NCBI GenBank assembly: GCA_003599365.1
Contig: QZJR01000098.1
Location: 1-44,137, forward strand
Length of the DNA stretch: 44,137 bases
Origin: Deltaproteobacteria bacterium
Lineage (GTDB): Bacteria > Desulfobacterota > UBA8473
Reading direction: 5' to 3'
Both the position numbers and the translations under genes were made by a program. The notes under the pieces were generated by a model. That model did no database searches and was not told where the DNA came from. It saw only the letters and a program-made list of their open reading frames with translations. Shown one piece after another: positions 2,953 through 41,092 of the stretch. The stretch's first letter is position 1; each line of letters opens with the position of its first letter.

Positions 2953-3384
2953 ATGTCGTTCAATATACTTGTTGTAGATGATTCAAATTCAATGCGGGCG
3001 GTAATTAAGAAGGTTATATCCTTGTCAGGATTTAAGGTGGACTGTTGTTTTGAAGCAGGCAATGGCAGAGAAGCGCTGGCGGTGTTGGCAAACGATTGGG
3101 TGGATGTAATTATATCGGATATTAACATGCCCGAGGTAAATGGTTTGGAATTATTAAACAAGTTACGGCAAGACATTCTTTATAAGGAGATCCCCGTGGT
3201 TATCGTAACCACGGAAGGCAGTAACGAACGTATGGAAGAGGTTTTTAACCTTGGGGCAAAGGGATTTATAAAAAAGCCTTTTTTGCCGGAAGAACTGAGA
3301 AGGGTTCTTTACCAGGTTATAGGGGTGGGAAATGACGGTGAATACGGAGAAGATAGAAAAGATCTTGATGGATTCGACTTTTGA
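2953..3384 (+). CDS. cheY: CheY-like single-domain response regulator
   Basis: 143 aa receiver: ILVVDDSNSMR, DVIISDINMPEVNG, VVIVTTEG, IKKPF. Confidence 0.9.
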   Translation: MSFNILVVDDSNSMRAVIKKVISLSGFKVDCCFEAGNGREALAVLANDWVDVIISDINMPEVNGLELLNKLRQDILYKEIPVVIVTTEGSNERMEEVFNLGAKGFIKKPFLPEELRRVLYQVIGVGNDGEYGEDRKDLDGFDF

Positions 3385-3844
3385 GGTCTTTGAAAAGATG
3401 TTTTACATCTCTCTTGAAGCTCTCAATGCGGATCATAAAGTATGCGATATAGCGGCAATCATAGGCCTTGATGGATCTGCAAGGGGAGAAGGCGACATAG
3501 CGGTAACCATAAACTTTGACGGATCTGTAAGGGGAGAAGGGCAGATATCTCTTTCGGGAGGGATGACAGAGATGATGGCGCAAAACATGCTGAGTCTTGA
3601 CGCCTGTGAAATCACGGAAAAAGACATAGAAGATTGCTCTAAAGAGGCGGCAAACATGATCTGGGGGAATTTCCTCCGGAAGTTCAATGCTGACGAAGCA
3701 TTTAACCTGTCCATCCCCATATTTGGGAGAAACCCAGGAACCATTAGATACCAGGGGCCGGATTTACAGGTGTTTAGATTGAACTTTGTATCAAGCGGTG
3801 AGGTACTCAAGGTAATCATGACCATGGCCTACACCCCGCTTTAG
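3332..3844 (+). CDS. cheX: CheX/CheC-family CheY-P phosphatase
   Basis: 170 aa, overlaps the end of cheY. The motif DCSKEAANMIWGNF...SIP fits the CheC/CheX/FliY active-site pattern D/S-x3-E-x2-N-x(about 22)-P. GGTGGG Shine-Dalgarno sequence before the ATG. Confidence 0.75.
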   Translation: MTVNTEKIEKILMDSTFEVFEKMFYISLEALNADHKVCDIAAIIGLDGSARGEGDIAVTINFDGSVRGEGQISLSGGMTEMMAQNMLSLDACEITEKDIEDCSKEAANMIWGNFLRKFNADEAFNLSIPIFGRNPGTIRYQGPDLQVFRLNFVSSGEVLKVIMTMAYTPL

Positions 3845-3863: not shown

Positions 3864-5083
<1,220 letters not shown>

Positions 5084-9274: not shown

Positions 9275-10002
9275 TTTTCCTTACTGCTCAGTTTTGCCTT
9301 AAGCTTTATCAAGGCCTGGCTGTGGATCTGACATATCCTACCCTCTGTCAGGTTCAACACATTGCCTATCTCTTTCATTGTCATTTCATCCCAGTAATAA
9401 AGGGAAAAAATAAGCTTTTCTTTTTCCGGAAGTTCATCAATAAGGAGCGCGAGCAACTCTGTTCTGGTTTTTTCTTCTAATACCTCAAAAGGGTCACTGG
9501 CATTTGGGTCAGGAATACATTCGGTAAGGCTTACCCCATCTTCTCCACTATTATCATTGAAATCCTCAAACCTCAGCGACGTTGTGATATTTGTATTCTG
9601 GAGTATACTGTAGTACTCATCCAAACTTATTTTAAGACTCTCCACGACCTCCTCATCTTCTGGTTGGCGCCCGAGTTCTCTCTCAAGCTTAAGATGTGCC
9701 TTTTTAATTGAACCAATCTTCTTTTTTATGGATATAGGTATCCATTCCATTGCCCGCAGTTCATCAAGCATTGCTCCTTTTATCCTGAACTTCACAAATG
9801 TATTAAGCTTTACCCTTCCTTGTTCAAACCTCTGAAGGGCATCTAAAAGGCCCACTATCCCGACGCTTATGAGATCATCTACAGTAAGCTGTGGAGTCAA
9901 TCTCCAGGTTAATCTGTAGGCAGTATATTTTATGAATGGGAGAGATTCCTTGATTATTTTTTCTTTTTCTTCCTCGGTTAATCCCATTTTATATCCAGAC
10001 AT
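9256..10002 (-). CDS. fliA: flagellar sigma factor FliA (sigma-28)
   Basis: The ORF track start at 10095 overlaps flhG. The internal ATG at 10002 (MSGYKMGLTEEE...) gives a 248-aa product. Sigma-70 region 2 (DDLISVGIVGLLDALQRF), region 3, and region 4 HTH (MTMKEIGNVLNLTEGRICQIHSQAL). Confidence 0.88.
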   Translation of the reverse strand: MSGYKMGLTEEEKEKIIKESLPFIKYTAYRLTWRLTPQLTVDDLISVGIVGLLDALQRFEQGRVKLNTFVKFRIKGAMLDELRAMEWIPISIKKKIGSIKKAHLKLERELGRQPEDEEVVESLKISLDEYYSILQNTNITTSLRFEDFNDNSGEDGVSLTECIPDPNASDPFEVLEEKTRTELLALLIDELPEKEKLIFSLYYWDEMTMKEIGNVLNLTEGRICQIHSQALIKLKAKLSSKEKQVDRL

Positions 10003-10027: not shown

Positions 10028-10876
10028 CTACTCAGGTGTTTTGTCTGAAGCAGACAGCAAATTTCCGATAAAAAACTGTAATGTCCCCTTGACATTGCAG
10101 TTTGAGTCTAAAATTCTAGATGCGATCTCAAAAATCTGTTTTGAGGCAAGACTCTTTGGATATATATCCACAAATGCCTTCTGTAAACTTACCGCCTTCT
10201 GCACAGAATCATCAAAAGGGATATGTCCGAGATAATCAAGGGATATATTCAGGAATCTTTCGGTTACCATGGAGAGCTTTTTGAAGACTTCAAAGCCTTC
10301 TTTAGGACTCTTTACTGAATTAACAATAACGTGGAATTCCTTTTCCTGATACCTGGTAAAAAGAACCTTAATAAGGGCATAGGCATCTGTAATGGCTGTA
10401 GGTTCCGGTGACGTTACTATCACAATTTCCTGTGCTGCGATACAAAAAAAGGCTACATTTCCTGATATGCCGGCAGCGGTATCTATGAGGAGGACATCCG
10501 CAAGAGCAGTAGCATTATCATAAGCGTCAAATTCCTCCAGGAGCTTCAACCTCTGGAATTCGTCAAGCGCCGTTAACTCCTGCACACCGGAACTGGCGGG
10601 TATTATCTTTATCCCATGGGGACCATCAACCACAATATCCTTGAGTGTCTTTTCACTATTCACTACATGTTGTATGTTATAGCGCGGGGACAGATTAAGG
10701 AGGATATCTATATTGCTGAGTCCAAGGTCAGCATCTAAAATCATCACATCTTTGTCCTGTTTTTTCATCGCTATGGCGAGATTTGCCACAACATTGGTCT
10801 TGCCGACACCCCCCTTACCACTGGCCACAGCTATTGTCTTCACACGTTTTCTCTCCTTTTGTCTTTCCTTCAGCAT
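10028..10876 (-). CDS. flhG: MinD/ParA-type flagellar number regulator FlhG (FleN/YlxH)
   Basis: 282 aa. Deviant Walker A SGKGGVGKTN and MinD-like fold. Positioned between flhF and fliA. The stop codon TAG lies inside a CCTGAGTAGTTAC repeat motif. Confidence 0.88.
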   Translation of the reverse strand: MLKERQKERKRVKTIAVASGKGGVGKTNVVANLAIAMKKQDKDVMILDADLGLSNIDILLNLSPRYNIQHVVNSEKTLKDIVVDGPHGIKIIPASSGVQELTALDEFQRLKLLEEFDAYDNATALADVLLIDTAAGISGNVAFFCIAAQEIVIVTSPEPTAITDAYALIKVLFTRYQEKEFHVIVNSVKSPKEGFEVFKKLSMVTERFLNISLDYLGHIPFDDSVQKAVSLQKAFVDIYPKSLASKQIFEIASRILDSNCNVKGTLQFFIGNLLSASDKTPE

Positions 10877-12033
10877 TTATAAGCCCCCTTCTCTAATATG
10901 AGATTTACGAGCTTATCCACCGTAACAGATTCGATGTCTCCGGGCACATTCTGTCCTGTTGTTATATATGCGACAGGCTTGCGGTATGTGAGCAGAAAAT
11001 TGTATAAGGAACCAAATCTCACGGCCTCATCAACCTTTGTGAGGGCTACATAATCAATCGGCAATTTAGTGTAAAATTCATAAGCTTTCATCATGAACTC
11101 ATTATCGCAGTTTGCACTCATGAGGAGATGAAGCTCCAGAGGTATCTCTGTTTTACATATCTCGATGATGTAATTGATATATGCCTCATCATTTGGATTC
11201 CTCCCTGTGGTATCTATAAAAATAATATCCCTGTTCTCCGCAAACTTCGAGAAACTATTCTTTAATTCATTGGCATTCGAGACAATAGATAACGGTATGC
11301 CCATGATCCTGGCATATATTCTCGTCTGTTCAAGCGCCCCTATTCTATAGCTGTCAAGATTAATAATCCCAACTCTCTTGCTATTCTTTATTGCAAGGGC
11401 TGAAAGTTTAGCTATAGTTGTAGTCTTTCCTACACCTGTTGGCCCAATGAGCATAACAGCCTTTTTACACCCCTCGTTTGAGATGCCGGATTCCTTTACC
11501 TTTATATCAGCCGATATTAACGGCGGGATGTCATTCAAATCATTGGCTTTTCCACAGAGACTTAAGGCAAACTCCTCCCGTACCGACCTTTCTCTGAGAA
11601 AAGAGAATATCATCCTCTTCTTTGGCGGCAATGATATTTCATAGCCGTTATTCCTCATGTTTTCTACGGTCTCGCGTAGGATTTCGATCTCACTTTTAAT
11701 CCCTTCAATGGACGAGTTGTGAGTTGTGAGCCGTGAGTCTTGAGTCTCGAATATCTTATTTTCTATTTCTGACCTCTGACCTCTGACCTCTGGCCTCTCG
11801 ATTTCGTTAACAGTCAAGGCGACTGTCGTATTTTCTGAATTTCTAACTTTGAGCTTTGAGCTTTGAGCTTTGAACTTTTCATTGTCATAGTCTACCGCCG
11901 CGGTCACCTCAACAAAAGGCCGGACACCTTTTTTTTCCTCTGTAGACAGTATTATTGCGTCTTCGCTAAGTTCTTTCTTCACCAATTCGAGAGCCTCGGC
12001 AAAATTCCTTGCTTTAAATTTTTTAATCTTCAT
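10870..12033 (-). CDS. flhF: SRP-type GTPase FlhF
   Basis: 387 aa. N-terminus MKIKKFKARNFAEALELVKKELSEDAIIL. G-domain GPTGVGKTTTIAKL, DTTGR, TKVDE. Confidence 0.9.
   Translation of the reverse strand: MKIKKFKARNFAEALELVKKELSEDAIILSTEEKKGVRPFVEVTAAVDYDNEKFKAQSSKLKVRNSENTTVALTVNEIERPEVRGQRSEIENKIFETQDSRLTTHNSSIEGIKSEIEILRETVENMRNNGYEISLPPKKRMIFSFLRERSVREEFALSLCGKANDLNDIPPLISADIKVKESGISNEGCKKAVMLIGPTGVGKTTTIAKLSALAIKNSKRVGIINLDSYRIGALEQTRIYARIMGIPLSIVSNANELKNSFSKFAENRDIIFIDTTGRNPNDEAYINYIIEICKTEIPLELHLLMSANCDNEFMMKAYEFYTKLPIDYVALTKVDEAVRFGSLYNFLLTYRKPVAYITTGQNVPGDIESVTVDKLVNLILEKGAYKC
11714..11874. repeat. three blocks of tandem heptanucleotides inside the flhF coding sequence
   Basis: GAGTTGT GAGTTGT GAGCCGT GAGTCTT GAGTCTC (11714-11748). 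TCTGACC x3 + TCTGGCC (11768-11795). CTTTGAG x3 + CTTTGAA (11847-11874). Confidence 0.9.
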
Positions 12034-14056
12034 ATCTCAACACCCCCGTGGTAGATAGTTTTACTGATGGAGATATCTCTGCATTGGAAAGAATGACCAG
12101 CGACGGAATGAATCTCTCTATGATTTTTCTGAGAAATCTCCTCGCCTGCGTGGAGCAAAGAATAATTGGCTGGGAACCTTTAAACCTACCTTCTGTGATG
12201 GCGGTCTCTATTGCCCTCATCAACTTATTTACAACTTCAGGGCTTATTGCACCTCCGGCTTCCACGGCATGAGAAATCGCCCTTTCAAACTCCGGATCCA
12301 GGGTTATAGCATAGATATTCCCGTCAGGAGAGATATACTGTTTGGTTATATACCTCGAAAGGGACTGCCTCACATATTCTGTGAGCAACTCCGTATCCTT
12401 GGTGGAAGGTGCCCAATCAATAAGGGTCTCAAATATGGTAACAAGGTCATTTATCGGCACCTTTTCCCTCAAAAGATTCTGAAGTACCCTTTGAACACCG
12501 CCTAATGTTAAAAGAGACGGAATAAGCTCATCAACAATTTTTGGATAGTTTTTCAAGAGATTGTCCAATAAACTCTGGACTTCTGCCCTTGTGAGAAGCT
12601 CCCACGCATGAGTTTTTATTAGTTCAGTCAGATGTGTAGTAATCACTGTCGGAGGGTCAATAACCATATAGCCCTTTGTTTGAGCTTTATCCATATCTTT
12701 ATCACTGATCCAGAAGGCTGGAAGTCCAAATGCCGGTTCCTTTGTAGGTATCCCTTCTATCTCTTCTGCTTCTCCTGATGCGACAGCAAGGCAGTGACCG
12801 ATCATAACCTCACCCCTTGCAATCTCAATACCCCGTATGAGTAAACTATATTCATGCGGCCTGATCTGGAGGTTATCCTTTATATGTATTGAAGGCGCAA
12901 TAAAACCAAGCTCAGAGGCAAGTTGTCTCCTCATTGCCTTTATTTTGTTAAGAAGGTCTACCTTCCCGCCCTCTAGAAGAGGAATTAAGCCATAGCCTAT
13001 CTCGAAGGTAAGCGGTTCTATCTCTATGACAGTATCTATAGCGGGTTCTTGGGCCATTGGCTTGATTTCCTGTTCTTTTTCGACCTCAACTGCATTCTTT
13101 GAAAGGACATATGCCAGGGCTCCTGATATAGTCGCAAGAAGCAAGAAAGAAATGTGTGGAAGCCCAGGTACAAGGCCGAGAACAACCATTACCCCCGATG
13201 TAGTACCCAGTGCTTTCGGATTTATTAATAGCTGTCTGGTTATATCTTTCCCAATATCTGTATCTGTTCCGGCACGGCTAACAACAATGCCCGCAGCAGT
13301 AGAAATGAGCAGTGCAGGGATTTGTGAAACAAGGCCATCACCAATGGTCAATATAGTATAAGTCTTTGCAGCTTCTAAAAGGGGCATACCCTCCTGCAGC
13401 GTACCTATTATGAAACCGCCGATAATATTTATACCCGTTATTATTAACCCTGCGATGGCATCACCTCTGACAAATTTACTGGCCCCATCCATTGCCCCGT
13501 AGAAATCAGCCTCTTGAGAAACGACTTTCCTCCTTCTCCTTGCCTCTGATTCATCGAGGAGCCCGGCATTAAGGTCTGCATCTATAGCCATCTGCTTACC
13601 CGGCATTGCATCAAGAGTGAATCTTGCAGCAACTTCCGCTATCCTGCCTGATCCCTTTGTTATGACCACAAAATTTACAATCACCAGGATCAGAAAGACT
13701 ACAAAACCAACCGCATAGTTTCCACCTACAACGAAATTCCCGAATGACTTTATCACTTCCCCTGCAGCATCCATACCTTCATTCCCTCTGAGCAGTATCA
13801 ACCTGGTGGACGCAATATTCAATGCGAGCCTGTAGAGTGTTGTTATGAGAAGCATTGAAGGAAATACAGAGAAATCCAGAGGCTTTTTAATATATATGCC
13901 GGTTACGAGTATAATTATTGACAGGGATATAGAGAATGACAGAAGGATATCCAGTACAAAAGGTGGGACAGGCAGTATCATCACGCCCAAAATAGAGACT
14001 ACGCTTACGGCAACAAAGACACCCCCTCTTTTTTGTATCAGTTCGAGAAAGTTCAT
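12023..14056 (-). CDS. flhA: flagellar export apparatus protein FlhA
   Basis: 677 aa. Polytopic N-terminal domain with the conserved FHIPEP-type segment (EVAARFTLDAMPGKQMAIDADLNAG) and a large cytoplasmic C-terminal domain. Confidence 0.96.
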   Translation of the reverse strand: MNFLELIQKRGGVFVAVSVVSILGVMILPVPPFVLDILLSFSISLSIIILVTGIYIKKPLDFSVFPSMLLITTLYRLALNIASTRLILLRGNEGMDAAGEVIKSFGNFVVGGNYAVGFVVFLILVIVNFVVITKGSGRIAEVAARFTLDAMPGKQMAIDADLNAGLLDESEARRRRKVVSQEADFYGAMDGASKFVRGDAIAGLIITGINIIGGFIIGTLQEGMPLLEAAKTYTILTIGDGLVSQIPALLISTAAGIVVSRAGTDTDIGKDITRQLLINPKALGTTSGVMVVLGLVPGLPHISFLLLATISGALAYVLSKNAVEVEKEQEIKPMAQEPAIDTVIEIEPLTFEIGYGLIPLLEGGKVDLLNKIKAMRRQLASELGFIAPSIHIKDNLQIRPHEYSLLIRGIEIARGEVMIGHCLAVASGEAEEIEGIPTKEPAFGLPAFWISDKDMDKAQTKGYMVIDPPTVITTHLTELIKTHAWELLTRAEVQSLLDNLLKNYPKIVDELIPSLLTLGGVQRVLQNLLREKVPINDLVTIFETLIDWAPSTKDTELLTEYVRQSLSRYITKQYISPDGNIYAITLDPEFERAISHAVEAGGAISPEVVNKLMRAIETAITEGRFKGSQPIILCSTQARRFLRKIIERFIPSLVILSNAEISPSVKLSTTGVLRYED

Positions 14057-15129
14057 ACCTGTCCTCTGCTTATAAAGCTCAAAGGTGAAAGCTTTGAGCT
14101 TTCAGCTTTCAGCTTATATATATACGCCAGTATCCTGGCCACGGCCCTGTAAAGTTCCTCGGGTATATATGAGTTAATTTTAAGCTTGTAGAGAGCCCTG
14201 GCCAATAGTTTGTCCTCAACAACAGGAATATGGTGTTTTCTTGCAATCTCTTTGATCTTTTCAGCTATGAATCCTGAACCTTTTGCAATAACCTCAGGCG
14301 CTGACATCTCGTCTCTCTTATATCTCAGGGCAACAACAATATGTGTCGGGTTTGTTATGACCACCGTTGCCTTTGGAACTTCCTGCATCATTCGTTTCCT
14401 TGCCATCTCCCTCTGAAGGCTCTTTATCCTCGATTTGATTAACGGCTCACCCTCTGACTCCTTATACTCTTCCTTTATCTCCTGTTTGGTCATTCTTATG
14501 GAACGCTCAAATCTCCATCTTTCATAGAGATAATCCATAATTGCGATGATAAAGAAAATGACTAAAGCAGATAACACAGCTTTAGATATAAGCCTGCCTG
14601 ATATTTCCTGAAGACCCCTGATATCCATGCCAGCTGTGAAGGGAAGGATAGGTATAAGCTTCTTAATGATGTAGTAGAACATGAATCCGCCCACAACAAA
14701 CTTTAAAAAGCTCTTGAGGAAATTCACAAGACCAGATATGGAAAACAACTGCTTAAGTCCGTTTAGAGGGTTTAGCTTTTCAATCTCGAATTTCAAAGGT
14801 TTGAGAATGATCCCTCCCTGCAATACCCCTGCAATTATAGCGAATATTGCTGCAGTTCCTAAAAATGGCATTAATGTCCAGAGCATTTTGTATGAAGCTG
14901 CTTTCATAACAGTAATCGGGTTTTGCCCGTATTGGAGTCCCAGGAGTTTCCCTGTTTCTACCATCATATTTTTTAGGAAACTATCCCCTGCAAAATAAAA
15001 CATGAGCAGGATTCCTGCCGTACCGGCTATTGATGTGAGTTCACGGCTCCTGGCAGCCTGACCTTTTTCCCTGGCCTTCTGTCGCTTTCGCGGCGTTGCC
15101 TTCTCTATCTTTTCATGTCCTTCAGGCAT
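14053..15129 (-). CDS. flhB: flagellar export switch protein FlhB
   Basis: 358 aa. N-terminus EKATPRKRQKAREKGQ, four TM segments, and the NPTH autocleavage site (VVITNPTHIVVAL). The stop overlaps the flhA start (ATGA). Confidence 0.95.
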   Translation of the reverse strand: MPEGHEKIEKATPRKRQKAREKGQAARSRELTSIAGTAGILLMFYFAGDSFLKNMMVETGKLLGLQYGQNPITVMKAASYKMLWTLMPFLGTAAIFAIIAGVLQGGIILKPLKFEIEKLNPLNGLKQLFSISGLVNFLKSFLKFVVGGFMFYYIIKKLIPILPFTAGMDIRGLQEISGRLISKAVLSALVIFFIIAIMDYLYERWRFERSIRMTKQEIKEEYKESEGEPLIKSRIKSLQREMARKRMMQEVPKATVVITNPTHIVVALRYKRDEMSAPEVIAKGSGFIAEKIKEIARKHHIPVVEDKLLARALYKLKINSYIPEELYRAVARILAYIYKLKAESSKLSPLSFISRGQV

Positions 15130-15928: not shown

Positions 15929-16152
15929 CTAACTACTCAGGTTCAAAGTTCCAAGGTTCACGGTTCACGGTTGATGCATTCGTAAAAAGTCGAAAAAATC
16001 CCTCTCCCTAACCCTCCCCCGTCAAGGGGGAGGGGATTTCGGACTTTTTACGAGTTCATCAAGGTTAGAGAGCGATGAACACAGACCAGTATGAAGATAA
16101 GGCAACCAACTGTGAACCTTGAACCCTGAACCTGACAACCTAGCGTAGTTAC
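15929..16152. repeat. type A MITE-like element with a nested type E element (15973-16060)
   Basis: Outer ends are CTAACTACTCAGGTTCAAAGTTCCAAGGTTCACGG and CCTAGCGTAGTTAC. The inner element is bounded by gatgcattcgtaaaaagtcg and cggactttttacgagttcatc around a C-rich/G-rich hairpin (ccctctccctaaccctccccc gtcaa gggggaggggatt). The outer sequence on both sides of the insert aligns with the uninterrupted copy at 3864-3993. Confidence 0.9.
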
Positions 16153-17696: not shown

Positions 17697-17710
17697 TGCG
17701 AACTCCTTTT

Positions 17711-17758
17711 GTTTAGGCTGTAGCCTAACAGCCTACAGCCTACGGTCTATCTACCTGT
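17711..17758. repeat. type D repeat between fliM and fliN
   Basis: gtttaggctgtagcctaacagcctacagcctacggtctatctacctgt. Hairpin aggctgtag/ctacagcct. Shares both ends with 9198-9274. Confidence 0.85.
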
Positions 17759-17766
17759 ATTTAAGA

Positions 17767-25458: not shown

Positions 25459-25509
25459 CACCCCCACCCAAACCCTCCCCCTTGAAGGGGGAGGGTTTGG
25501 GTGGGGGTG
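25459..25509. repeat. perfect 23-bp stem / 5-nt loop hairpin (type E core)
   Basis: cacccccacccaaaccctccccc ttgaa gggggagggtttgggtgggggtg. It is related to the C-rich/G-rich cores at 16001-16037 and 32271-32350. Confidence 0.9.
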
Positions 25510-25558: not shown

Positions 25559-25682
25559 GTAACCGTTAACGGTTCTCAGTTTGCAGTTTACGGTAATTAC
25601 AACAGCAGGCTTAAGCCCGCTGTTATATAAAGCTTGAAGCATTTTTGCCAACTGTTAACTGCAAACCGTGAACTGTGAACGG
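25559..25682. repeat. type C intergenic repeat, full copy
   Basis: gtaaccgttaacgg...gtaattacAACAGCAGGCTTAAGCCCGCTGTTatataaagcttgaagcatttttgccaactgttaactgcaaaccgtgaactgtgaacgg. It is near-identical to 39537-39696 and to the reverse complement of 32807-32937. Confidence 0.92.
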
Positions 25683-25725
25683 ATAACAAATAGCCTGGAG
25701 GAGTAAATGTGGAGAGGTATTCATT

Positions 25726-31387: not shown

Positions 31388-32722
31388 TTAGACAAAAATA
31401 CTTACTCCTTTCATATCCCAATAAGAAATCGGTAATTGTATTTCTTTCCTTGAGTGTGGTGCTTCTGAATCTTCTTCCCCGACATTATCCTCTGCTTCAT
31501 TTCTTTTATCTTTAAGGGACACTGAAAAACTTCCTACGTTGAGTCCTTCATTATTAAGTGTATTCAGGATATTATGGAGATTGTTGACAATCAATTCCTT
31601 CCCGATGGTATCTGATACATTTATATGTGCATTGATCATACCTTTGTCCAGGGTTAGCTCGATATGGAGCTTTCCCAGACTCTTGGTTCCGAGGAAAACA
31701 TCTATCGAGGCATCATCTTTTTTCGTTATAATGAACGCATTCCCAGGAATGTAGGTAGATTCCGGCGATTCTTTTATAGGTTGAGCAAATTTGACATTAT
31801 TCGAGTTAGCGGTGTTATCAAAATTTGGGAATATGTTCCCCGGTTTTATGTCGATCTCTGCTGTATGTGAACCGGCATCTTTCCCTTTGCCTGCTGCCGG
31901 CTGTTCAAGCGCTGTGAATTTGTCTAATTCAAATAAGACCTCGCTTACAGGTGATTTTAATGTCTGAAAATCTTTTATAATAGAAAAATTATTTGGAATA
32001 TCTATTTCACTGCCGAGTGTATACAGGGTGTTGTGGAGATTATTGACAATCGAATCTTTGCCCATGGCCTCCGGCGCTTTTATCTGTGCATTGATCATAC
32101 CTTTGTCCGGGGCTAGCTCGATATGGAGCTTTCCCAGACTCTTGGTTCCGAGGAAAACATCTATCGAGGCATTATCTTTTTTCGTTATAATGAACGCATT
32201 CTCAGGAATGTAGGTAGATTCCGGCGATTCTTTTATAGGTTGAACAAATTTGATAGACTCGTAAAAAGTCCAATCTCCCCTCCCCTTGTGGGAGGGGATG
32301 AAGGGGAGGGCACCCTCACCCCAACCCTCTCCCATCGAGGGAGAGGGATTTTTTCGACTTTTTACAACTTCATCAAATTTGACATCATTCGAATCAGCAG
32401 CGTTATCAAAATTTGGGAAAATGTTCCCCTGTTTTATGCCGATCTCTGCTGTACATGAACCGGCATCCTTCCCTTTGCCCGCTGTTGGCTGTCCTGCTGT
32501 TTCAGGCAGACTGCTGCCCTCCGCTGATATATCCTGATCTCCTGACTGGAACGTTGAAATGGATAAAATAGATGTATTGCCCTGTAATAAGTTTAATATG
32601 GCGGCCATCAGGCAATCAAAAGACTCGCTGTTGGATTGCGCCATATCCGGTTTGACACTTTGAACTGCCAATGACTTTATCCCACCGGTTATTTTAGACT
32701 CTATTGGCATTAAGATATCCAT
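31388..32722 (-). CDS. fliK: flagellar hook-length control protein FliK-like, with tandemly duplicated C-terminal domain
   Basis: 444 aa, in the fliK position (fliJ-ylxF-fliK-flgD-flgE). The C-terminal Flg_hook-like segment (LGKLHIELTLDKGMINAHINVSDTIGKELIVNNLHNILNTLNNEGLNVGSFSV) is present twice. Confidence 0.75.
   Translation of the reverse strand: MDILMPIESKITGGIKSLAVQSVKPDMAQSNSESFDCLMAAILNLLQGNTSILSISTFQSGDQDISAEGSSLPETAGQPTAGKGKDAGSCTAEIGIKQGNIFPNFDNAADSNDVKFDEVVKSRKNPSPSMGEGWGEGALPFIPSHKGRGDWTFYESIKFVQPIKESPESTYIPENAFIITKKDNASIDVFLGTKSLGKLHIELAPDKGMINAQIKAPEAMGKDSIVNNLHNTLYTLGSEIDIPNNFSIIKDFQTLKSPVSEVLFELDKFTALEQPAAGKGKDAGSHTAEIDIKPGNIFPNFDNTANSNNVKFAQPIKESPESTYIPGNAFIITKKDDASIDVFLGTKSLGKLHIELTLDKGMINAHINVSDTIGKELIVNNLHNILNTLNNEGLNVGSFSVSLKDKRNEAEDNVGEEDSEAPHSRKEIQLPISYWDMKGVSIFV
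32254..32374. repeat. type E MITE-like element inserted in frame in fliK
   Basis: Ends gatagactcgtaaaaagtcc and cgactttttacaacttcatc form an inverted repeat. The core is C-rich/G-rich hairpins. AAATTTGA flanks it on both sides (32246-32253 and 32375-32382). Confidence 0.88.
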
Positions 32723-32752: not shown

Positions 32753-32806
32753 GGTAATCTACTAATAACCAAATTCCCAGCAACGATAATCAAGCAGTCT
32801 TCGTAT

Positions 32807-32937
32807 CCGTTCACAGTTCACGGTTTGCAGTTAACAGTTGGCAAAAATGCTTCAAGCTTATATAACAGCAAGCTTAAGCTTGCTGTTATAATGCCTGCTG
32901 TTGTAATTGCCGTAAACTGAGAACCGTTAACGGTTAC
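32807..32937. repeat. type C intergenic repeat, reverse orientation, with a perfect 24-bp palindrome (32864-32887)
   Basis: ccgttcacagttcacggtttgcagttaacagttggcaaaaatgcttcaagcttatatAACAGCAAGCTTAAGCTTGCTGTTata...gtaattgccgtaaactgagaaccgttaacggttac. Confidence 0.92.
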
Positions 32938-33037
32938 CGGTCTTCTTAATGAGCTATTATCGGGGGGACAAAGTTCCGAAAGGTTCTTGCATGTTTACAA
33001 GATGGGACGTTAAAAAGTATTTTGCAGTGAAAATATT

Positions 33038-39536: not shown

Positions 39537-39696
39537 GTAACCGTTCACGGTTCTCAGCCTGCCCTGGCGCGAGCGCTGCGGTCTGGGCCAGGGTTTACAG
39601 TTCACGGTAATTACAACAGCAGGCTTAAGCCCGCTGTTATATAAAGCTTGAAGCATTTTTGCCAACTGTTAACTGCAAACCGTAAACTGTGAACGG
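39537..39696. repeat. type C intergenic repeat with a 36-nt GC-rich insertion (39558-39593) and a 24-bp palindrome (39615-39638)
   Basis: Aligns with 25559-25682 except for the inserted cctgccctggcgcgagcgctgcggtctgggccaggg. Confidence 0.92.
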
Positions 39697-39726
39697 ATAC
39701 GTTATTTGTTATCACCCTGCATTTTT

Positions 39727-41034: not shown

Positions 41035-41092
41035 TACTCAAAACTCAAAGGCCTTCTCTTTCAGCTTTAACCTTTCAGCTTTCAACTTCCAA
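41035..41092. repeat. CTTTCAG/CTCAAA heptamer-type repeat between the kinase and regulator genes
   Basis: ctcaaaactcaaaggccttctctttcagctttaacctttcagctttcaacttcc. It belongs to the same CTTT(C/G)AG family as 14092-14114 and 11847-11874. Confidence 0.8.

Follow-up and report, generated by a model that had tools for sequence, protein, structure and literature searches.

The window analysed here (the whole stretch of 44,137 nucleotides (nt) of contig QZJR01000098.1) is a flagellar and chemotaxis region, and its flhF gene carries three arrays of tandem heptanucleotides within the coding sequence (CDS). The gene codes for the signal recognition particle (SRP)-type GTPase that positions the flagellum. 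It lies on the minus strand at 10870-12033, stop codon included, and is an open reading frame (ORF) of 387 amino acids (aa). Pfam PF00448 (SRP54-type GTPase domain) matches aa 191-380 with an E value of 7e-40, and B. subtilis FlhF (PDB 2px0, E 1e-33) was recognized as the best solved relative. More than 7000 homologues are available, with names that include Nitrospirae, Thermodesulfovibrionales, and Candidatus Magnetoovum, and the P-loop GPTGVGKT is invariant in the orthologue alignment. The gene is located between flhA and flhG-fliA, in the synteny flhA-flhF-flhG-fliA, and the products of its neighbours are FHIPEP, ParA/MinD-like, and sigma-28-like proteins. Judged by its sequence, the ORF is assigned to FlhF on all the features tested, namely an NG GTPase domain with P-loop, an N-terminal B domain with a variable linker behind it, and the gene order.

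A model of FlhF was built in AlphaFold on 20 orthologues. Codons 1-50 (11884-12033, minus strand) encode the conserved, folded N-terminal (B) domain, which is near-invariant in the 20 Nitrospirota orthologues and has a predicted beta-alpha-beta-beta fold with a predicted local distance difference test score (pLDDT) of 82-91. Codons 51-106 (11716-11883, minus strand) encode a disordered hypervariable linker with pLDDT of 27-48, all values below 50, and the helices of the N domain start from residue 106. Conservation in the orthologue alignment was found at residues 1-50 and from about residue 112 on, with zero conserved columns between. The orthologous proteins are 345-470 aa long, and their linkers cannot be aligned and differ greatly in length. 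The linker is rich in K, R, E, S, and Q, and it is the sole coding place where the nucleotide alignments with L003, L004, and L005 break (alleles and loci of relatives are designated here as L001, L002, etc.). All three heptamer arrays lie inside this low-pLDDT segment, in agreement with the sequence-only reading, which had placed them in a variable region between the N-terminal and NG domains. The same reading had proposed an alignment of orthologues to see if residues of about 55-110 are an insertion. With no conserved linker column and such a wide range of lengths, there is no conserved peptide that could have received one, and residues 51-106 are a natural variable spacer of the protein.

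Array A, at 11847-11878, has 4.6 copies of CTTTGAG on the plus strand (CTCAAAG in gene sense), with a Tandem Repeats Finder (TRF) score of 57 and 96% matches; it covers codons 52-63 and the peptide KFKAQSSKLK. Array B, at 11768-11798, has 4.4 copies of TCTGACC on the plus strand (AGAGGTC in gene sense), with a TRF score of 55 and 95% matches, and covers codons 79-89 and the peptide RPEVRGQRSE. Array C, at 11714-11747, consists of about five degenerate GAGNNNN units on the plus strand (ACTCACA or ACTCAAG in gene sense) and covers codons of about 96-107, with the peptide ETQDSRLTTHNS. By TRF alone, array C spans 11714-11738 with 3.6 copies of a GAGTTGT-like unit, and a lag-7 scan extends it to 11747. 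All three are annotated on the minus strand, like the gene. Both the blocks and the peptides translated from them are thus as the sequence-only reading had given them. The units of the three arrays are mutually unrelated. Each has a TGA when read on the other strand, which leaves the observed orientation as the only one that can code. When gains or losses of one or two units were simulated in any of the arrays, the ORF ended at residues 58-127, which bears out the earlier expectation that a single-unit change would frameshift flhF, while changes of three units kept the ORF, with 380 or 394 aa. The number of units per array is 3.6-4.6 in flhF of the window and up to 7.6-8.1 in L007 and L053. 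The locus is a coding non-triplet simple sequence repeat (SSR).

Ten flhF alleles of the clade were recovered, the window included, and they represent eight distinct sequences. The closest genomes are the metagenome-assembled genomes (MAGs) WOUX01 and JACQWO01; a scan of metagenome contigs for close relatives found none above 61% identity and gave no extra alleles. All ten alleles are intact, in-frame ORFs. L055 and L056, from two other Joint Genome Institute (JGI) samples, have flhF 100% identical to that of the window (387 aa), and L048 is 99.5% identical, with six differences in flhF and also 387 aa. L001 has about 97% nt identity at the locus level and FlhF of 380 aa. L004 (about 93-98% identity by segment) and L005 (about 92-95% over flagellar genes) both encode 364 aa, L003 (about 84-88% over flagellar genes) 355 aa, and L002 (about 85%) 370 aa.

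The differences in length are located in the linker. At array A, L001 has one TCAAAG(T) unit versus four in the window, and the net difference, three CTCAAAG units, is exactly 21 nt. A 69-nt linker segment that includes array A is missing from L003, L004, and L005, and in L002 other local 7-mers (TTCAAGG and TTAGAAA) are amplified at this site. Array C is present in L001, L004, and L005, absent in L002, and short by exactly 21 nt (three units) in L003. Array B is present in the window, L048, L001, L003, L004, and L005, with the unit AGAGGTC in the window and L001 and AGGAGTC in L003, L004, and L005, a lineage difference that reads as concerted evolution of a tandem array. The linker indels of the clade are of 21 nt (array A), 21 nt (array C), 69 nt, and 6 nt, all multiples of 3. 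Outside of genes, L005 carries an extra CAGCCTA unit (+7 nt) in the intergenic array at 17697-17766, the flhB-flhA spacer of L001 is longer than that of the window by 14 nt (two units), and some orthologous intergenic arrays are replaced wholesale between strains. Copy number is mutable on the scale of strain divergence, as the earlier reading had supposed, and within flhF only frame-preserving outcomes were seen. Compensated double frameshifts between arrays were rejected: the window, L001, L004, and L005 share one peptide both between arrays B and C and behind them, so the frame is unchanged. Of the six flhF differences of L048, three are crowded into 8 nt of array B (L048 1981-1988, window about 11786-11793), and such clustering could be a sign of point mutation being elevated or templated in the array.

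The sequence-only reading had suggested a slipped-strand phase switch. In such a contingency locus, a one-unit change would turn FlhF off (truncated at 58-127 aa) and on again, and the population would hedge its bets between motile and non-flagellated or mis-flagellated cells. The position and behaviour of the arrays suit this: they are non-triplet, lie in the 5' third of flhF, and are the purest in the window, any change of one or two units gives a null, copy number differs between 97%-identical strains (window and L001), and heptamer arrays arose independently in the FlhF linker of at least four lineages. The hallmark of contingency loci, coexistence of ON and OFF alleles, was not found among the ten consensus alleles of the clade, however, as none is out of frame, linker indels all come in multiples of 3 nt, and the window allele is base-identical in two further samples. 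Among other FlhF proteins, length is also uniform within ten clusters of 90% identity, including the cluster with an 8-unit array. The presence of arrays follows genome-wide richness in heptamers, and a switch needs no three separate arrays. With 3.6-4.6 units, the arrays are also short beside verified heptanucleotide switches, which usually have far more units. In a search for truncated OFF products with the 55-aa N-terminus of FlhF, six short ORFs were found, and none was accepted as a switch. One of them lies on a long-read-style contig where flhA is broken into three ORFs, and it was dismissed as a sequencing error; the contigs of the other five are of 516-1380 nt, and to judge by that length, these ORFs were most likely truncated at contig ends. 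The short members of the ten clusters were likewise rejected as truncated alleles, being C-terminal or edge fragments. A phase switch is accordingly regarded as unlikely. Slightly less credence still is given to its wider form, in which the arrays of FlhF linkers would be a repeatedly evolved mutational switch of polar flagellation in free-living sediment and groundwater Nitrospirota, with the 21-nt polymorphisms as ON-to-ON footprints of frequent single-unit events. If real, such a switch would bring environmental, non-pathogenic bacteria, and a core gene of flagellar placement that sets the number and position of flagella, into the range of contingency loci.

Coding heptanucleotide repeats are already known. 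The precedent closest to a heptanucleotide switch is the poly-psi tandem repeat of variable copy number (VNTR) of neuO, the O-acetyltransferase gene of E. coli K1 prophage CUS-3, with 2-93 units that begin two nt after the start codon; the gene is ON only at multiples of three units, ON and OFF alleles are documented, switching was measured, and the activity is graded (PMC3046976). As in neuO, the 7-nt unit of flhF is read in three frames, three units make a 7-aa heptad, the repeat lies in a disordered segment, full length is kept only at multiples of three units, and copy number is variable between strains. Unlike neuO, where the units are typically many, flhF has three short arrays of 3.6-4.6 units in an internal linker, with in-frame alleles only, and is known from sequence alone. 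The neuO unit AAGACTC also occurs in array C (11720-11747), where the encoded TQDSRL is a rotation of the neuO heptad RLKTQDS; given the distance of the hosts, this shared unit is almost certainly a coincidence. Among flagellar genes, C. coli flhA and H. pylori fliP are phase-variable through SSRs. SSR-driven phase variation is also described for the Campylobacter regulators flgR and flgS (PMC8355987), which resemble flhF in being flagellar-assembly genes with a frameshift-prone simple repeat. These cases differ from flhF in that their tracts are homopolymeric, motile and non-motile variants were observed in experiments, and the bacteria are host-adapted pathogens; no such SSR case in FlhF turned up in the literature searched.

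The arrays of flhF are part of a wider property of the window. Period-7 arrays number 17, with 0.57 expected from dinucleotide-preserving shuffles, and period 7 alone is enriched to that degree, with no other period comparable. By a stricter lag-7 score, there are six segments in the window and none in the shuffles, and the four best are the three flhF arrays and the array of the flhB tail. About 12-13 of the 17 arrays are located in the intergenic 6.8% of the window, and flhF, with its three, is the only gene with internal arrays. The enrichment is shared by L001-L005 and L007 and is nearly absent elsewhere among about 40 Nitrospirota loci compared. The heptamer repeats of the window are thus genome-wide-type tandem 7-nt repeats, mostly intergenic and lineage-specific. 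A TAGGCTG/CAGCCTA array in the fliN-fliM spacer (17722-17743, TRF) served as a non-coding comparator, and an intergenic CTTTCAG array (41058-41088, TRF) belongs to the unit family of array A and the flhB tail. Inverted GGTTCAN/NTGAACC heptamer runs lie at 3864-4048, bounded by the anchor GTAACTACTCAGG and with a local duplication; the two copies of the duplicated segment (3935-4052) differ by exactly one CCGTGAA unit, with spacings of 62 and 55, so that the change of copy number which had been read at 3938-4051 is real. No Rfam family was matched in the window, and scans for promoters and terminators gave no more matches than expected by chance.

Genome-wide heptamers have been described in other bacteria. 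Cyanobacteria have heptamers of the short tandemly repeated repetitive (STRR) type, and Mrazek and colleagues reportedly treat a class of 'long SSR'. Marine Beggiatoaceae and some cyanobacteria carry TAACTGA repeats genome-wide, many prokaryotes have heptanucleotides as their most frequent class of long SSR, and intrusions of these into ORFs are mainly at permissive positions (PMC4679880). The repeats of the window resemble them in several ways: their abundance is lineage-specific, they are mostly intergenic and often lie beside start or stop codons, they intrude into ORFs rarely and at permissive places, and stops in the unit limit their orientation. They differ in that the window has many unrelated units with no favoured one, arrays and their reverse complements often pair up into hairpins, and the host is, by the names of homologues, a member of Nitrospirota (Thermodesulfovibrionales).

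The junction of flhB and flhA is the second place where heptamers enter a protein of the window. A heptamer array with an inverted partner (AAGCTGA twice, AAGCTCA, then CTTTCAC and CTTTGAG) lies at 14057-14115 on the minus strand and forms a hairpin directly upstream of the flhA start. In L001 (3600-3700), flhB stops at the TGA of the third AAGCTGA, so that FlhB has 344 aa, and flhA starts after a spacer of 53 nt. In the window (14053-14115), a G>C change (AAGCTCA) removes this stop and is followed by a deletion of 14 nt (two units); FlhB is of 358 aa, its last 14 aa translated from the heptamer hairpin, and flhB overlaps the flhA ATG as ATGA. The C-terminus of FlhB depends on the heptamer array. 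Of the two hairpins of the CTTTGAG/CTTTCAG family that the sequence-only reading had claimed, the one at 14074-14114 was confirmed, with -21.9 kcal/mol and a z of -2.7, and the other, at 41057-41090, turned out weak (z -1.2). The flhB-flhA spacer of L004 has a TAGGCTG/CAGCCTA hairpin of -36.8 kcal/mol (z -3.3), that of L005 a 20-bp GGATTCGAGGGGTCAAGG stem of -47.7 kcal/mol (z -6.6), and those of L001, L003, and L002 have a weak hairpin or none. As different heptamer families form hairpins at this spacer across strains, the structure was repeatedly rebuilt or repeatedly inserted.

Dispersed elements with heptamers occur between the genes. The 13-nt anchor GTAACTACTCAGG has 14 matches in the window within two mismatches, against 0.56 expected, nearly always in intergenic positions that include 3864, 3981, 4036, 7902, 7993, 10024, 15929, 22494, 29546, and 31358. 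It is often found in inverted pairs that bracket heptamer runs of the GGTTCAN or GCACAAAG types, with hairpins of 100-220 nt, and the family looks like repetitive extragenic palindromes/bacterial interspersed mosaic elements (REP/BIME). Many intergenic arrays are paired with their own reverse complement. A second dispersed element, of about 110-140 nt, was observed at 1549-1610, 25562-25685, 32802-32941, and 39593-39701, two of the copies being 97% identical; GTGAACN heptamer runs lie on both sides of its palindromic core, AACAGCRGGCTTAAGCCYGCTGTT. A copy is located in the fliQ-fliR spacer of L004 (6118-6239), where the window holds a different insert, and these sequences suggest a mobile element similar to miniature inverted-repeat transposable elements (MITE). 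A G/C-rich palindromic element, CCCTCCCCC...GGGGGAGGG with TTGATGAACTCGTAAAAAGTC-type arms, is present at 15971-16140 (fliR-fliQ spacer), 32250-32376, and 25473-25507. At 15971-16140 it sits in the loop of a heptamer hairpin. It is missing from the 97-98%-identical L001, where the fliR-fliQ spacer is of 79 nt versus 248 nt in the window; in L003 the spacer is of 14 nt. Two genes carry longer repeats. In ORF 31388-32722, direct repeats of 238 nt (90% identity) and 133 nt (86% identity), spaced by about 460-590 nt, span 31557-32492, and in ORF 3332-3844 there is a 48-nt tandem duplication at 3439-3534. Both are probably internal domain or segment duplications unrelated to the heptamers.

The other suggestion of the sequence-only reading was that the flhF arrays could be an exonised repeat. 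On such a view, one of the dispersed intergenic mobile or hairpin elements with heptamers would have been inserted into flhF and absorbed into its frame. The window has such elements and an over-represented anchor, the elements at a given spacer differ between strains, the unit of array A belongs (as AAGCTCA) to the family of the flhB tail and of 41058-41088, and in flhB a heptamer hairpin was indeed absorbed into coding sequence. Against insertion, the termini, anchor, or hairpin architecture common to the dispersed copies were not recognized in flhF, which shares with them only a 7-nt unit family. It has no GTAACTACTCAGG anchor within two mismatches, its linker has no inverted partner, and neither a target-site duplication nor an element boundary is visible there. 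The RNA of the linker is predicted to be unstructured (z +0.97), and the idea that the coding arrays form an mRNA hairpin like the intergenic ones was dropped. The three arrays have three unrelated units, and the linkers of other lineages also have unrelated units. L002 has alternative local amplifications at the site of array A. L001 has there a single native 7-mer, TCAAAGT, and only the unit family of array A (AAGCTSA/CTTTSAG), no other flhF unit, recurs elsewhere (14057-14115 and 41058-41088), which favours local amplification over insertion. Exonisation is thus held to be improbable, somewhat more so than the phase switch.

Heptamer arrays were found in the FlhF linkers of three other Nitrospirota lineages, with FlhF 52-57% identical to that of the window and with unrelated units. 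L007 has CAGAACA repeated 7.6 times at 9740-9792, L051 has AACTCCC repeated 4.6 times at 10229-10260, and L053 has GTTCAGG repeated 3.9 times at 4222-4248 and CGAAACC repeated 8.1 times at 4265-4321. These are the only substantial internal-coding arrays in the three loci. Of about 30 loci taken without selection, only that of the heptamer-rich L007 genome had flhF with a heptamer array. The array of the L053 type is degenerate. All seven members of its 90% cluster have 380 aa, and substitutions in the linker make up most of the differences between them, as fits an array in its decay phase. At the peptide level, lag-7 periodicity was flagged in 6 of 126 homologues versus 1-2 for any other lag, and this proxy is too insensitive for short arrays. 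A further heptad, MRNAEFG/MRNAELG, was observed in P0128, a short FlhF fragment.

The linker may also be considered from the side of the protein. The heptads (LKAQSSK, QRSEVRG, and THNSQLT-like) could represent a tunable, charged, flexible spacer that is selected for adjusting FlhF function, in the way NeuO activity is graded by heptad number (PMC3046976). The linker changes in whole heptads, is disordered, and is rich in K, R, E, S, and Q. Steps of whole heptads are, however, what frame preservation imposes on a 7-nt unit, and relatives function with an array missing or replaced, at 355-387 aa in the clade and 345-470 aa in the order, with no conserved motif. Selection of this kind is given a low probability, like exonisation somewhat below that of the phase switch, and the linker more probably has no function beyond that of a flexible spacer.

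We consider it probable that the flhF arrays are heptanucleotide microsatellites that are born, homogenised, decayed, and lost by slippage in a disordered, indel-tolerant linker, with selection removing the frameshifts. Replication slippage on local 7-mers would create the arrays in place, within the disordered spacer that joins the N-terminal domain and the NG module. The genome of the window, its close relatives, and a few other Nitrospirota would grow 7-nt arrays wherever the sequence may vary, and in this 44-kb stretch the free sites would be nearly every intergenic spacer and one indel-tolerant coding segment. Two filters would act in flhF: in the coding orientation the unit must contain no stop in any of the three frames, and only net changes of three units (21 nt, one 7-aa heptad) or other changes by a multiple of 3 nt survive. 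The arrays would later expand, homogenise, decay, and be deleted, which would give much of the between-strain variation in length and sequence of the linker. SSR density is known to follow structural tolerance (PMC3315296), and as in repeat expansion in disordered linkers, the positions of the flhF arrays coincide with the low-pLDDT segment. Usual coding repeats have a period divisible by 3; with the period of 7 found here, two out of three slippage events inactivate the gene.

Several points speak against slippage in a merely tolerant linker. No heptamer arrays of the window are purer or score higher than those of flhF, and simple purifying selection on a frameshift-prone tract predicts the opposite. 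About half of the 168 nt of the linker is array sequence, and the linker is denser in it than the intergenic spacers. L053 has its two arrays in flhF and none over the remaining 13 kb of the locus, so a genome-wide bias is no obvious explanation there. The alleles are also few, and all come from consensus assemblies or gene calls, which are biased towards intact ORFs and in which minority out-of-frame variants are invisible.

Neither heptamer-rich genomes of Nitrospirota nor repeats in the linker of FlhF were found described in the literature searched. A heptamer-repeat-rich lineage of Nitrospirota, apparently unreported, is relevant to the assembly and annotation of these MAGs. If slippage in a tolerant linker is the correct explanation, a genome-wide 7-nt slippage bias writes protein sequence where structure permits, frame preservation quantises the outcome into steps of seven residues, and a large share of the FlhF linker diversity of one clade would be due to 7-nt slippage.

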